A program made the position numbers. A stretch of DNA of 63,431 nt, counting the filler, from Actinobacteria bacterium UBA7524 (GTDB lineage Bacteria > Actinomycetota > Coriobacteriia > Anaerosomatales > UBA912), in the NCBI GenBank assembly GCA_002478275.1. It is 3 parts of 3 records of this genome, joined end to end, with 100 filler letters (N's around TTAATTAATTAA, not from the genome) between each part and the next. Parts side by side here need not be neighbours in the genome. Positions count along the whole stretch, not along the records: positions 26,447 to 56,188 come from DLMY01000035.1; 2 more parts are not named here. One strand, written 5' to 3'. Shown here piece by piece: positions 30,001 to 36,000 of this stretch. The first letter of the stretch is position 1. Each line of letters starts with the position of its first letter.

Positions 30001-33000
30001 CTCTGGTGATATCGACGGCAAGATCGCCGCGATCGAGGCGATCGACCTGGAGGTCATCGCCCGATTCATGGATCTTGAGGGTGACGTCAGGATCCTCGCG
30101 ATGCCGGACCACCCGACTCCCATAGAGCTTCGCACCCACGTCGGCGAGCCTGTCCCATTCGTCTTGTGGGGTTCGGGCGTGATCGCGTCAGGGGCGTCGG
30201 CGTACGACGAAGAGTCGGCAGCCTCGACCCGGCTGATGGTCGATCCGGGTCGCGATGTGATGTCGATGTTGCTGGGTGTGGGCGAGATGGCGTCATCCCT
30301 GTAACGACCTGGCGTACCTCAGATCTTACCTGCGAGGATACGTCCCAGGCTGGCGGCTTTGTCACGTTCCCAGTCGTGGACACCGGGCCGGCGCCAGGTG
30401 TCGGTGACAGCAAGGGAGCCGATCGTGCGGATACCACCTTGCCCGAGTGCGCTTCTCAGTTCACGCACGGGGCCGGTGGTGTAGCCGAAGAACGTAGCGA
30501 GTGGCTCAGGGGCTCCGCAGGCGGTGATCACTATGGCTCGTTTGGCTTCCTCCACACACCTGGATCTTGGGACATCACGCATGCCGAGACCTGGCAGGTG
30601 CATCTGTCCGCTTGCGGCGAAGTACCCCGCGAGCCTGTCAAGCAGCGCCCGGGTGACTTCGTCGGCGCGCCTGAAGTAGGAGGGCGTACCGAATATCACG
30701 CCGTCGGCATCCGAGATGCGTGAAGCGAGTTCGGGCAGGTCATCGTCGATCTTGCATGTTCCTGTAGCCATGCACATCCGGCAGCCGGTGCAATAGCGGA
30801 TCTCCATGTCGTAGAGACGAACCCGTTCGACCTCCGCACCCGCAGCTTCGGCGGCCAGGGCGGCCGTTTCGACGGATCGGCTCACGACACCTTGTCGTCT
30901 ACTGGCGTCTATCGCGATGATTCTCAACGGGTGTCTCCCTTCGGCGTGCGGGACTCAAAGAGCGTTCGTTGTGGCGGGGCCTGGGCCATGTGCGCCGAGA
31001 TGGTCTCAGAACAATCATCGAGCCAGTCGATCGTTGCCCGTGTGCGTGCGATCGCCCCGTCAAGGGTCATGCGGTGAACGAGACACGTACGCTCTGTCGC
31101 CTCGCAGCTTCCGGAGCCGAGCGTCGAGACGCGTGCCCGGAGATCATCCAGCCGGTCCTGGTGAGCCGAGCGTTCACGTGCGATCACGTCGAGGACCGTT
31201 TCGTCGTTGAGGTCCCCACTGAATTCCAGACGCAAGAGGAATGGGTCGCGCGCGGGTGGAAGGTGGGGTTTCGACACGATCCAGTCCGCGAGCTCTCTAC
31301 GACCGTTGTCGGTGATGGCGTACACCTTGCGATCTGGTTTTCTCGACTGTCGGACCGTGCGGAGAGTCACGAGGCGCTTGTCGTGTAGCCGCTCCAGAGT
31401 ACGGTAGACCTGGGCCTGGTCGGCGGTCCAGAAGTGACGGGCGCGGTCGTCGAAGCATCGGGTCTTGAGGTCGTACCCCGACAGGTCCTCGACGTTGAGG
31501 AAACCCAAGATCGCATGGTCCAGGGACACACGAACCGCCCTCAGAGAGATATATGACAGAACAAGTATATGTGGAGACATATAACTTCGTCTAGTGTCGA
31601 GTCCAACTCCAGTTCTGCACCTATGTCCCATGCTCAGGATGCATTTTCGAAGTCTCAAGTCGTAGTTGACCCACGCTCAGGACAGGCTTTCACTTCAGGA
31701 CAACTGAAACGGGGCCCTTGCGGGCCCCGTTTCATGGGAGGGAGGTGAAGAAGACGTACGTATGGGTCCAGATCGACAGTATGAGCACTTCTTCGTACAC
31801 GCACAGTATCGGCCTTGGTGACGAAGCCGGCGTGAAGTGCATGTGGAGAATGCGTGTGTTCGAATGTGGCTCCGCGTTGGATCTCGCATTGCCGTTCACG
31901 CTCTCGAACGACCGCTCGGGTGGGACGGTACTGTTCTATTGGCACGTGACATGCTCCACTGTGGTGTAGTGGAATGAACGTGTGACGCTGAACGTGGCCA
32001 GTGTCGGAAGGAATCGCACACGATGCCAGGACGAAGACTCAACTGCTGGGAGTATCAGGACTGCGGGCGCGGTCCTGGTGGAGAACGTGCGGCTGAGTTG
32101 GGTGAGTGTCCGACATCGACGGCCCAGGCGATGCACGGCAGCAACAATGGCGTGAACGCGGGTCGTGCGTGCTGGGTCGTCTCGGGTACGTTGTGCGATG
32201 GGGTCGTCGCGGGTGACTTCGAAGACAAGGTGAATGACTGTCGCAGGTGTGCTTTCTACCACCGCGTCGAGGTCGAGGAGGGGCTTGAGTTCGAGGGGAA
32301 CGACGCTCTCTTGTCCCGCTATCGCGGTTAGCTTCGTCTCGCCCCGTCACTGTTGACTGAAGACAGGTGAGTTCGACACTGAACCACCGGGTAGAATCTG
32401 TTCATGCCTTTCTACGAACATCCTCTTGCCGCAGTCACGGCCGACGTCGCCCTGTTCGCTGGAGCGAGGTCCGAGCGACTCATCCTCCTTGTCCGCCGTG
32501 CGTTCGATCCGTTCGTGGGGTCGTGGGCTCTGCCCGGGGGGTTCGTCGAGGAGGGCGAGCGGATCGAAGACGCCGCTCGAAGAGAGCTGGCCGAGGAGAC
32601 CGGAGTGCTTTGGCGGCGTCATCTCCACATGGTCGGAGGTTACGGTGACCCGGGAAGAGATCCTCGCGGCTGGACGGTGAGTGTCGTCTATGCGGGCTGG
32701 GCCGGGGAGCGGATACTGCCGGTGGATGCCGGCGACGATGCGGCCGAAGTTGCGTGGCACGACGTAGCGGCCCTTCCCGACCTGGCGTTCGATCATGCGC
32801 GGATCATCTCTGATGCGATCGACGTGTTGCGCCTGCACAACGAGTGGTGATGTCGGCGTCTGCGTCGGTCGATCGTCCGGCGGAGCCGCTCGCTCGTATG
32901 CAGGTCGAGTGCGCGTTGACATGCACTTGCGCCCCCGCGTATCCTTGCCGGAACCGAACATGCGTGCCGTCGATGGGGATGAGTACGTGTGCCCAGTAGG

Positions 33001-36000
33001 ACCAGCAGAGAGCCGGGGTAGCTGAGAACCGGTGTCCGAAGAGCCGCGGAACATGGCCCCGGAGGTCTCCGGAGGAAACGCGCAAGCGGAGTAATGCCGG
33101 ACGGTCGCCCCCGTTACCATGGGCTATAGGAGCATAGACGCCGGCGGGTAAACCCCACCACCCCGCGTTCTTTCGATCGGCGTCGAGTGCTTGAGAGGTT
33201 CCGGAGATACATTCCCGGGATGAAGTCGGGTGGTACCGCGGAAGGCGCATGCGCTTCTCGCCCTGACACCGTACGTGTCGGGTGGGGAGCGTTTTTCTAT
33301 TGGAGGTGAGTGTCGTGGCAAAGAGCTGGGAAGAGATCAACGCACGGATCGCGAACGGAGAAGCGGTCGTGATGACCGCCGAGGAGTTCGGGGATATTGC
33401 GGCCGAACAAGGTGTCTCGACCGCTGCGAAGCAAGTCGACGTCGTGACGACAGGGACGTTCGGACCCATGTGCTCCTCCGGCGCCTTCCTCAACTTCGGA
33501 CACTCGGACCCCCCGATCAAGATGGGGGAGATCACTCTCAACGACGTGCCCGCGAGCGGAGGGCTCGCGGCTGTCGATACGTATCTGGGCGCGACCGAGC
33601 CATCGAACGTGAGGGGCATCGAGTATGGCGGTGCGCATGTCATCGAGGATCTTCTGCGTGGCCGTGCCGTCAGGCTTCGTGCGACCGGCCCCGGGACAGA
33701 CTGCTATCCGCGCACCGAGATCGATACATGGGTCACGCTCGAGGACTTGAACCAGGCGTACCTGTTCAACCCTCGCAACGCGTACCAGAACTACGCCGTG
33801 GCCGTGAACAGTGGTGATCGGACGCTCTACACATATCTCGGTACACTCTTGCCGCGCCTGGCGAACGCGACCTACTGCTCTGCCGGCGCCCTGTCGCCCT
33901 TGCTCAACGACCCGACCTATCGGACAATCGGCGTGGGGACGAGATGCTTCGTGGCGGGCGCTCCCGGGTATGTCGCCTGGGAGGGAACCCAGCACAATCC
34001 GCATGGTGACCGGGACGAGCATGGTGTCCCGATCAAGCCCGCAGGCACTCTTGCGGTGATCGCGGACCTCAAGCAGGCGGACCCGGAGTTCTTCTCGGCC
34101 GCGACGTTCACGCGCTACGGGGTCTCGTGCTTTGTGGGGATCGGCGTCCCGATCCCCGTGCTCGACGAGGAGATCGCTGCGACACTGGCGCTGACCGACG
34201 CACAGTTGACGGCAACGGTGTTCGACTATGGTGTCCAGCGCCGTAGCCGCCCGGCTCTCGGCACGGTCACCTACGCGCAACTACGCAGCGGGCAGATCGA
34301 GATAGACGGCGTCAAAGTGCCTACCGGTCCGATCAGCTCGCTGCCTAAGGCCCGCCGTGTAGCCGAGGAACTCAAGTCCTGGATCACCCGGCACCGCTTC
34401 ACGATCGCGCCGCCGCTGCAACAGCTGCCCCAGGTCGGGGCCCAGGCATTCAAACCGCTCGAGGTTCGCACAGAGGAGGCGATCTGACATGGCCAAGAGA
34501 AGACTCGACTTGACGTTCCCTCCTCGGCAGGCCACCAAACCGATCACATATCACCTGGTGAAGGATTTCGATCTGACCCCCAATATCCTCAGGGCCCAGA
34601 TCCAGCCCGGGCAGGAAGGGCGGATGCTTCTGGAGGTGAGTGGTCCTCGAGAGGTGATCGACCAGGCCGTCGAGTTCCTGGAGGGGGAGGGAGTGGCTGT
34701 GCACGCCGCAGCCAGCGATATCTGCCTCGATGAACAACAGTGTGTCGTTTGTGGACTGTGCACCGCGGTCTGTCGCCCGGGCGCGCTCACGCTTGACCAG
34801 GACAGCGCCGAGCTCGTGTTTGACAAGGACAAGTGCGTGTATTGTGAGGCGTGTGTGGTCGCGTGTCCGCGCAGGGCGATCACCCTCACGTTCTAGGGCT
34901 GAAGGAAAGGGAACCGTCGATGCCTGATATCTTGATGCGTCTTGGACGTGATGTCCTGGTCGTCGACGGGGCGTTCGGGACGATGTTGCAGGGCTACGAA
35001 ATGCCGCCCGAGCAGTGTCCCGAACAACTCAACATAACGGCTCCGGAGATAATCAGGGAGATCCATCACAACTACGTCCTGGCGGGCGCCGACTGCATCA
35101 CGTCGAACTCGTTCGGCGGGACCAGGGCCAAGCTGGACGAGTACGGACTCGGGGATCAGGTCGAGGAGCTCAACCGGGCTGCCGTGCGCTTGGCTCGTGA
35201 GTCCGGCGTACAGCACGTCCTGGCCGACGTGGGGCCGACAGGACTGGTACTCGAGCCGCTCGGTGCGGCCTCCTACGACTACGTGTTCGAGTTGTTCGCC
35301 GAGCAGATATCGGCGCTTGCCCAGGAGAACCCCGACGCGATCATCATCGAGACCATGACCGATATCGCCGAGGCCCGCTGTGCGCTGCTTGCGGCACGCA
35401 GCGTGTGTGACCTCCCGGTCTTCGTGACATGCACGTTCGGTCTATCCGGGCGTATGGACCTGTCCGGCACGGATCCGGCGACGGCCGCGATCATTCTCCA
35501 GGCTGTCGGTGCTGACGCGGTAGGACTGAACTGCGGACTGGGACCGGAGCAGATGGAGCCTCTGGTGGCCGAGATGGCTGCTGCGACCTCCCTGCCCCTG
35601 ATCGTACAGCCCAACGCCGGGCTGCCGACTCTCGTCGATGGGCAGACGGTGTTCCCCGGGACCCCGGACGAGATGGGAGAGCACGCGGCTCGCTTCGTCG
35701 ATCTCGGTGCAGCCTTGGTCGGATCGTGTTGCGGCTCCCGCCCGTCGTTCACAGGCGCCATCGTCGACTTCGTTCGTGACAAGCCGCCGGCGCCAAGACG
35801 ACCCTTGCCGCCGGGGACGGTGCTGGCCGGTCCCCGTGGCGCGATACGCATCGGTGGCGGTGCTCCCATAGCAGTGGTTGGTGAGCGGATTAATCCGACC
35901 GGGAAACGTGCGCTTGCCGATTCGCTGAGGGAAGGCTCGATGTCGGTGGTTCGTCAGTATGCCGCCGAGCAGGCCGCCGCAGGTGCGGACCTTCTGGACG

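Follow-up and report, generated by a model that had tools for sequence, protein, structure and literature searches.

The window, that is, the whole stretch of 63,431 nucleotides of Actinobacteria bacterium UBA7524 (order Anaerosomatales) that was analysed, contains an operon in which a gene for the homocysteine synthesis enzyme HcyBio (COG1900/DUF39) is followed by genes for a NIL-ferredoxin protein, a cobalamin-dependent, MetH-like methionine synthase, a DUF5981 protein and methylenetetrahydrofolate reductase (MTHFR). The start of the MetH-like gene is uncertain because its reading frame overlaps the preceding gene. These Pfam assignments bear out an earlier note on this DNA, which had placed a T-box ahead of just such an operon. 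In the genome, which is 83% complete, the HTS family has no match and Cys_Met_Meta_PP has weak matches only (26-28 bit). To our knowledge, the DUF39/COG1900 homocysteine pathway has been proven genetically solely in methanogens and Desulfovibrio. Between the end of a NUDIX reading frame at 32850 and the GTG start codon of HcyBio lies a gap of 464 nt, and it is this gap that holds the leader described here (Table 1).

A cmscan search of positions 32800-33400 under an E-value threshold gave a single match, to the T-box family RF00230, at 32961-33268 on the plus strand (76.0 bits, E 1.1e-16), and this match spans the full model, 1-219 of 219. A genome-wide search with RF00230 recovered the same leader (E 7.6e-17). 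The earlier claim of a full-length T-box in this gap, with AUG as its specifier, is therefore borne out. Its score is below the Rfam gathering score of 93, and a cmscan of the whole window at the gathering threshold gave no matches. Orthologous leaders in front of HcyBio do exceed the cut-off, both inside the order (two genomes, 93.6 and 93.3 bits) and at seven loci of other actinomycetotal lineages (97.5-120.9 bits; three actinomycetotal MAGs at 101-121 bits and four more loci at 97.5-110 bits). Upstream of the leader is a promoter-like site, and a TAnnnT hexamer is aligned at the same place in 29 of 30 leaders from the order, the thirtieth being a sequence cut by the extraction window. Judged by its sequence, the leader is very probably a T-box riboswitch specific for methionine, of the classical kind that terminates transcription.

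Table 1. Elements of the leader and genes of the operon, with positions in the window
Feature	Position	Strand	Basis
Promoter-like site TTGACA, 18 nt, TATCCT	32916-32945	+	10/12 matches; 1 site vs 0.1 expected in shuffles
Stem I: base helix, GA (K-turn) motif, specifier loop, AG bulge, distal loop	32966-33066	+	Rfam alignment
AG bulge AGAGA	33007-33011	+	within Stem I
Distal loop GGGGUAGCUGAGAA	33017-33028	+	aligned to T-box model
Specifier codon AUG, context GAA-C-AUG-G (33049-33056) then CCCC	33053-33055	+	codon columns of T-box model
Stem II with S-turn (AGGAAA / AGUAAUG)	33068-33101	+	Rfam alignment and pair counts
Stem IIA/B pseudoknot, CGG..CCG, loop GCCC pairs with GGGC	33102-33124	+	helix 172-175/186-189
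Lineage-specific linker hairpin, IIA/B to Stem III	33130-33192	+	10-pair outer helix
Stem III GUUCCGG / CCGGGAU	33198-33221	+	Rfam alignment
T-box sequence and antiterminator; 7-nt bulge UGGUACC 33231-33237, UGGU 33231-33234	33227-33265	+	Rfam alignment and folding
Intrinsic terminator: long G+C-rich hairpin 33251-33292, then UUUUU 33292-33296	33251-33296	+	whole-leader MFE
RBS GGAGGUGA 33302-33309 and GTG start 33315	33302-33317	+	sequence; free of terminator
HcyBio (COG1900/DUF39) homocysteine synthesis enzyme	33315-34487	+	PF01837, E 1e-147
NIL domain and 4Fe-4S ferredoxin	34489-34896	+	PF09383, E 5e-17; PF00037, E 3e-11
Cobalamin-dependent methionine synthase (MetH-like)	34851-37433	+	S-methyl_trans, Pterin_bind, B12-binding_2, B12-binding
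DUF5981 (methylene-THF reductase C-terminal-like), start uncertain	37328-38110	+	PF12225, E 2.5e-30
MTHFR	38107-38964	+	PF02219, E 1e-33

Stem I has its full set of motifs. In an alignment of the 30 leaders from the order, 84-100% of the cells are paired in the helices formed by columns 7-9/107-109, 16-19/99-102, 27-32/85-90, 40-42/77-79 and 53-57/71-75, and both partners have changed in 8 of the 21 pairs. While these flanking helices covary, there is little or no variation in the specifier loop (AUGAGUA / GAA-C-AUG-G), in AGAGA or in the distal loop. GAACAUGG and the specifier-region sequence GAACATGG are each unchanged in all 30 aligned leaders and in all 55 named loci that keep both motifs. 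The assignment of the codon has two internal controls, and both are read correctly, since the model columns that hold AUG here give AUC in the leader of a class I synthetase and UUC in that of pheS in the same genome. The leader thus combines an AUG specifier with downstream methionine-synthesis genes, from HcyBio to MTHFR.

The bulge of the antiterminator is in agreement with this codon. Its UGGU (N = U) fits A73, which is present in all three tRNAs with a CAU anticodon in the genome, each with an encoded CCA end. Among the tRNAs that read the triplets overlapping AUG, Thr(UGU) has U73 and both Asn and Trp have G73. Among the CAU tRNAs, the one on contig C14 is initiator-like by the usual identity rules: its anticodon stem has three G-C pairs at the lower end, a U1-G72 wobble tops the acceptor stem, and position 73 is A. 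The one on contig C45 is presumably ileX-like. The initiator-like tRNA fits AUG and UGGU equally well as an elongator. It is therefore possible, though less likely than not, that the same mechanism responds to initiator tRNA-fMet instead of elongator tRNA-Met, in which case the operon would be tuned to the supply for initiation of translation. A precedent is reported for the metICFE-mdh leader of Staphylococcus aureus (PMC3771891). Against it, no feature of the sequence prefers any one of the CAU tRNAs, and that of C45, prior to lysidine modification, fits as well. Furthermore, the S. aureus work reports that AUG was not the determinant of tRNA binding by the met T-box (PMC3771891), so that an AUG specifier alone is no proof of the acting tRNA.

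The central part of the leader is built from Stem II, a pseudoknot and a hairpin that is peculiar to this lineage. The Stem II helices 111-115/161-165 and 122-125/149-152 are paired in 100% and 94% of the cells, respectively, with four pairs changed on both sides. The pseudoknot covaries as well: pair 174/187 is C-G in 28 leaders and U-A in 2, and at pair 173/188 a single leader has G-C where the other 29 have C-G. The linker hairpin accounts for the insert of about 110 nt that follows CCGUUA in the Rfam alignment. Independent folding of each of the 30 leaders gave this same long hairpin, with a length of 61-73 nt in all but one, where it measures 44 nt, and its outer helix is 94% paired with changes on both sides in 6 of 10 pairs. 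In 22 of the 30 leaders it bears CCACC (ACCACC in 18), which is exactly complementary to GGUGG(U) of the T-box bulge region. This hairpin could act as a mimic of the tRNA acceptor end that occupies the bulge in cis and sets the threshold for uncharged tRNA-Met, or it could bind a further ligand; that it serves regulation as a second input of this kind, instead of being a passive spacer, seems improbable. The sequence of Stem III varies among relatives, and MAFFT aligns its arms in different registers, so this stem, like the upper antiterminator, is outside the column-by-column pair counts.

The terminator, which the earlier note had left unanalysed, is now located. It had escaped a simple hairpin scan because of the loop limit of that scan (3-8). 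The T-box sequence GGGUGGUACCGCG (from 33228) is invariant in 30 of 30 leaders. With its bulge free, the antiterminator has a predicted energy of -11.7 kcal/mol here and of -9.5 to -18.2 kcal/mol in 29 of the 30 leaders (the thirtieth was mis-cut in extraction), as compared to -35.9 kcal/mol for the 3' domain with the terminator. Since the terminator uses the 3' arm of the antiterminator, the two structures are mutually exclusive, and this arm is shared in 29 of 30 leaders. The 12 pairs of the terminator helix are 98% paired across the 30 leaders, three of them with changes on both sides, and in all 30 the 3' domain (-25.9 to -41.2 kcal/mol) is dominated by the terminator hairpin and a U-rich tail. 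The HcyBio start that follows is kept in relatives as M-A/S-K-S/T-W-E/D-E-I-N. Actinobacterial T-boxes such as those of ileS are described as translational (PMC1262725; PMC7778990), and by analogy the leader might control translation by sequestration of the Shine-Dalgarno sequence, and not transcription. This is very unlikely: the hairpin that competes with the antiterminator stops at 33292 and is followed by UUUUU, with the ribosome-binding site outside it, Stem I is full length and not of the short actinobacterial form, and in this genome the leaders of the class I synthetase and of pheS likewise end in hairpin-plus-U-tract structures.

Over the whole leader, 59 hand-placed canonical pairs are paired in 95.9% of the cells of the 30 sequences, versus 34.7-47.4% with the partners slid, and 23 of the 59 show changes on both sides versus 4-11 when slid; five measures were reached by none of 500 shuffles, a count that overstates significance given the kinship among the sequences, from which the scored structure was itself placed. 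RNAalifold finds compensatory change in 24 of 71 pairs.

The earlier counts for leader DNA (75 of 146 genomes of the order, 58 of 98 of high quality, none of four in the own family) were reproduced; the absence from the family is explained by the fact that none of its four genomes has HcyBio. The claimed conservation with HcyBio also holds: the leader is present in 75 of the 90 genomes of the order that bear the gene, and the HcyBio start follows all 30 fetched leaders. In ten genomes of the order with an intact HcyBio, the 700 nt ahead of the gene hold no T-box and match nothing else in Rfam, so the switch is dispensable. Outside the order, 11 of the 20 genomes sampled from other actinomycetotal lineages have an AUG T-box in front of HcyBio. 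The score under the Rfam cut-off, the 63-nt hairpin in the linker and these ten relatives might suggest a functionless relic or a chance resemblance, but with E 1e-16, functional motifs all invariant in 30 of 30 leaders, covarying helices and the same leader-gene pair in other lineages, this idea is hardly credible and is already contradicted by conservation.

The riboswitch is proposed to work as follows. Transcription would start a few bases past the -10 box (32940-32945). A methionine tRNA would read the AUG offered by Stem I with its CAU anticodon and dock by its elbow onto the AG bulge and distal loop. When this tRNA carries no amino acid, the free A73-C-C-A end would pair with UGGU and stabilise the weak antiterminator, and RNA polymerase would read through into the five genes from HcyBio to MTHFR. 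When it is charged, the far more stable terminator would form and transcription would stop ahead of the operon. Falling charging of tRNA-Met would in this way lead to homocysteine being made from sulfide and then methylated to methionine.

Some wider claims made for this leader have to be revised. It is not the only T-box in its genome, as RF00230 has four matches at E<=0.01, with 77.6 (contig C18), 76.0 (C35, the HcyBio leader), 40.9 (C36) and 24.5 bits (C19); the three others precede the class I synthetase (AUC), pheS (UUC) and an aminotransferase. Nor is SAM without a role, since a SAM-I riboswitch above the Rfam cut-off lies ahead of metK, the only gene before which the genome keeps one. 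SAM synthesis keeps a SAM sensor, and de novo methionine synthesis would be under tRNA sensing. A T-box regulon outside ileS is not new in Actinomycetota: T-box matches (E<=1e-5) occur in 143 of the 146 genomes of the order, mostly 2-6 each, and a T-box of the Corynebacterium glutamicum his operon has been cited before (PMC9413887). Nor is there support for the claim that a regulator of the COG1900 pathway is new in bacteria: among 14 more distant loci, 7 have SAM-I (RF00162) ahead of an HcyBio homologue, the loci being mostly of non-actinomycetotal MAGs (labelled Bacillota, Clostridia, Bacteroidota and Endomicrobiales). A more sober idea than that of a second input through the linker hairpin is that a Met T-box already stood before the DUF39 operon in the ancestry of the deep anaerobic Actinomycetota, which would make classical T-boxes old in the phylum. 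No link between a Met T-box and this pathway was found in the literature searched; the link is apparently still undescribed, and it gives a Met T-box of ordinary mechanism a new regulated target.

We know of no account of how the DUF39/COG1900 pathway is controlled in these bacteria, and the leader provides a readable regulatory signal for it. Its AUG specifier also provides evidence, independent of homology, for a role of the entire operon in methionine supply, the NIL-ferredoxin and DUF5981 genes included. The textbook picture for Actinomycetota is that of a single, translational ileS T-box; uncultured anaerobic members differ in having classical terminator-type T-boxes, usually several per genome. 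The general view of how T-boxes work is unchanged. The SAM-I of the distant loci and the Met T-box found here form a clean natural case of a regulator swap in front of the same gene.

Among known systems, the actinobacterial ileS T-boxes share the RNA family and the phylum with the leader, but they are translational and have a short Stem I, whereas here a full Stem I is combined with an intrinsic terminator. The C. glutamicum his T-box, here compared by description only, likewise controls an amino acid biosynthesis operon of an actinobacterium, and is described as acting through transcriptional attenuation (PMC9413887); it differs in the amino acid, histidine, and in the order. There is also a likeness to the metICFE-mdh leader of S. 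aureus and to the Met T-boxes found in Lactobacillales, which are reported to have an AUG specifier and a terminator/antiterminator switch and to control de novo methionine genes where relatives use SAM riboswitches (PMC3771891; PMC2494555). Unlike these, the present leader belongs to an actinomycetotal host, has an extra linker hairpin of 63 nt, and would target not trans-sulfuration genes but the sulfide-based DUF39/COG1900 and NIL-ferredoxin route with metH and MTHFR. SAM-I in front of HcyBio homologues is also a cis-acting leader at the same place and gene, switching methionine synthesis off when supply is good; it senses SAM, however, and not tRNA charging, by means of an unrelated RNA fold.

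The 464-nt gap between the NUDIX gene (32404-32850) and the GTG start codon at 33315 contains one Rfam match, a T-box (RF00230) of 76.0 bits with 219 of the 219 model positions aligned (cmscan in E-value mode, E 1.1e-16); at the Rfam gathering threshold, cmscan gave no match in the window. Judged by its sequence, the leader can be accepted as a real T-box despite a score below the cut-off, since orthologous leaders do reach it: those of two other genomes of the order, G055 and G140, score 93.6 and 93.3 bits, and in other actinomycetotal MAGs the leaders 5' of HcyBio reach 97.5-121 bits. 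The lower score of this leader probably stems from the long linker insert. At the -10 hexamer of the promoter-like element in front of the leader, 29 of 30 relatives show TAnnnT in the alignment. Overall, we are highly confident that this is a genuine Met T-box with an ordinary mechanism.

Features of the leader (positions in the window) and other riboswitch matches of the same genome (positions on the contig named)
Feature	Position	Strand	Remarks
Promoter-like TTGACA-18-TATCCT	32916-32945	+	site search
T-box leader (RF00230)	32961-33268	+	
Stem I	32966-33066	+	GA motif, specifier loop AUGAGUA / GAA-C-AUG-G, AG bulge AGAGA, distal loop
Stem II with S-turn	33068-33101	+	
IIA/B pseudoknot	33102-33124	+	
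Extra (linker) hairpin, 63 nt	33130-33192	+	A1 columns 190-268
Stem III	33198-33221	+	
T-box sequence GGGUGGUACCGCG		+	3' of Stem III
Terminator hairpin	33251-33292		runs into UUUUU
RBS GGAGGUGA	33302-33309	+	
T-box L001	C18:12520-12780		before class I synthetase gene; specifier AUC
T-box L003	C36:6215-6504		before pheS; specifier UUC
T-box L004	C19:142707-142897		before class I/II aminotransferase gene; short Stem I, codon not readable
SAM-I riboswitch L035	C3:10767-10897	-	51.1 bits; directly 5' of the S-adenosylmethionine synthetase gene (metK)

The codon columns of the T-box model are occupied by AUG in the leader. This reading rule holds, since the same columns give the codons listed for the class I synthetase gene, which is probably ileS, and for pheS, two internal controls from the same genome. 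By the position rule and these two controls, the other frames of GAACAUGG (AAC, ACA, CAU and UGG) are ruled out as specifier. The bulge, UGGU, calls for the discriminator base A73, and all three tRNA genes with a CAU anticodon in the genome have A73 and an encoded CCA. As a third argument against these frames, the tRNAs for overlapping triplets are mismatched to UGGU, Thr(UGU) having U73 and both Asn and Trp G73; the assembly contains no tRNA-His, so that CAU falls outside this comparison. On the basis of general tRNA identity rules, we take the CAU tRNA on contig C9 to be elongator-like, that on C14 initiator-like and that on C45 ileX-like. The sequence gives no choice among the three as effector. 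In the met leader of S. aureus, the initiator tRNA is reported to be preferred (PMC3771891).

Whether the leader ends in a terminator or in a helix sequestering the RBS had been left open in the earlier note; a terminator was found, and the RBS is free. Folding of the 3' end yields two mutually exclusive structures: an antiterminator of -11.7 kcal/mol, in which UGGUACC is left as a bulge, and a 3' domain of -35.9 kcal/mol around the terminator hairpin, which takes the 3' arm of the antiterminator. As both the RBS and the GTG lie outside the terminator hairpin, the switch is predicted to act at the level of transcription. The leaders L001, L003 and L004 all end in a hairpin followed by a U-rich tail.

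Leader DNA matches 75 of the 146 order genomes (58 of the 98 of high quality), and HcyBio is present in 90 of the 146. Both GGUGGUACC and GAACAUGG are kept in all 30 fetched leaders, each time with the start of HcyBio next. On A1, the alignment of 30 order leaders, 59 canonical pairs were placed by hand, pseudoknot and terminator included. With the reservation that such figures are generous, as the 30 sequences are kin and the structure was derived from these same sequences, paired cells amount to 95.9% versus 34.7-47.4% with partners slid by 1-3 columns, pairs changing on both sides number 23 versus 4-11 when slid, and 0 of 500 shuffles reach any of five pairing measures; even so, the comparative support is plain for each helix. 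RNAalifold, run independently, arrives at Stems I and II, the linker helix and the terminator; of its 71 pairs, 24 are compensatory. As MAFFT aligned the arms in differing registers, folding went sequence by sequence for Stem III, for the inner hairpin of the linker and for the upper antiterminator; the per-sequence antiterminator energies leave out locus L023.

RNAalifold also proposes a long-range pairing of A1 columns 166-178 with 315-326 (33102-33113 with 33227-33238 in the window), which would join CGGUCGCCCCCG of the IIA region to its complement CGGGUGGUACCG in the T-box. Eight of its 10 pairs are invariant and none changes on both sides; it conflicts with the canonical fold and was set aside. 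CCACC, whose complement GGUGG lies in the T-box, is found in the linker hairpin of 22 of the 30 leaders versus 5.3 expected from mononucleotide shuffles that do not control for kinship; in this window, the motif lies in the inner loop of the hairpin rather than the 3' internal loop.

This leader was previously thought to be the only T-box in the genome. RF00230 gives four matches, in front of the class I synthetase gene (77.6 bits), the HcyBio operon (76.0), pheS (40.9) and the aminotransferase gene (24.5), and T-box matches occur in 143 of the 146 order genomes, mostly 2-6 in each. Nor does the earlier reading "not SAM" hold for the cell as a whole, since a SAM-I riboswitch scoring above the cut-off precedes metK. 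It is the sole SAM-I match in the genome, and SAM-IV has no match there. With SAM-I before metK and a T-box before the operon, the cell would sense both signals, and a division can be predicted in which SAM controls the SAM synthetase and tRNA charging controls de novo methionine synthesis.

The named relatives are Coriobacteriia MAGs, one labelled Anaerosomatales and others under older labels. One MAG with the leader is named UBA2279 (L062), and PMC9686372 uses that name for the family of the two isolates it describes. Among their 66 loci (76-90% protein identity; one without upstream DNA and one cut short), the T-box motif occurs in 56, in 55 of them together with GAACATGG; both motifs are missing from nine, each of which extends 1000 nt upstream. 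In 10 fetched leaderless order genomes (G046, G048-G050, G093, G115, G119-G121 and G134; loci L036-L045), HcyBio lies about 100-170 nt 3' of the NUDIX gene, and no Rfam match, T-box included, was found upstream of it at E<=0.1. Four of these genomes, belonging to one genus, have the common motif GTGCGACAAT(A/G)GC some 100-180 nt upstream of the start; it may be a protein site taking the place of the leader. In G047 (C6:182944-184115), G079 (C6:159533-160705) and G053 (C5:120999-121922), in-frame TGA stops or shifts of frame split HcyBio into pieces; despite the broken gene, leader DNA is still kept in G047 and G079. At the loci L120, L128, L132 and L135, 265-500 nt separate the Met T-box from HcyBio; directly behind the leaders of L128 and L135 comes a gene start with RBS, and HcyBio is probably the second gene there. 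The earlier finding that the genome's own family has no leader DNA was borne out, and is accounted for by the lack of the gene itself: HcyBio is present in 0 of the 4 family genomes. This absence raised the question of mis-binning of C35, the contig with the leader, which is typical of its bin (G+C 0.630 versus 0.635, tetranucleotide r 0.963, rank 11 of 31). A search of sequencing runs yielded one DNA run, perhaps the origin of the assembly, and no RNA run.

Outside the order, HcyBio occurs in 84 of 396 other sampled Actinomycetota genomes and in 0 of the 20 genomes listed for the same class. Twenty of the 84, spread over 15 families, were chosen. In 11 a T-box in the same orientation as HcyBio precedes it by 43-383 nt, with AUG at the specifier in all 11 (six by Rfam alignment, five by pattern); nine have no upstream match at E<=0.01, and a SAM riboswitch was found upstream in 0 of the 20. 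Among 14 more distant named loci, three actinomycetotal ones have a Met T-box, seven have SAM-I (records labelled Bacillota, Clostridia, Bacteroidota and Endomicrobiales) and four have nothing. On this survey, tRNA-Met is predicted to control HcyBio in Actinomycetota, and SAM to do so elsewhere. The bulge of the Met T-boxes L130 and L131, which precede HcyBio in one family of another actinomycetotal lineage, is UGGC instead of UGGU and would call for a G73 tRNA. L143 and L144 (82-83 bits) have no recognisable UGGNACC or terminator; one of them, whose end adjoins GGAGGAGG at 43 nt from the start codon, may for these reasons represent a translational form.

A T-box outside ileS, put forward earlier as new in Actinomycetota, has a published precedent in the his operon of C. 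glutamicum (PMC9413887). In Actinobacteria, a 2005 survey detected neither a classical T-box nor an RNA element upstream of methionine operons (PMC1262725). In the searchable literature, no paper was found that connects COG1900/DUF39 or Coriobacteriia to a T-box, and the published description of the order makes no mention of methionine, riboswitches or T-boxes. The leaders may already be listed in TBDB; several pass the Rfam cut-off and would be annotated automatically.

The MetH-like protein (34851-37433) comprises homocysteine methyltransferase, pterin-binding and two B12-binding domains, with no C-terminal reactivation domain among the domain matches listed; the MetH of Desulfovibrio is likewise reported to be without it (PMC4045070). 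The DUF39/NIL-ferredoxin route has been reported on genetic evidence in Methanosarcina and Desulfovibrio (PMC5764234, PMC4045070), and Met T-boxes on methionine genes are described for staphylococci and Lactobacillales. Set beside these systems, what appears to be new is the target pathway of a Met T-box; its spread in the phylum is wider than was first seen.
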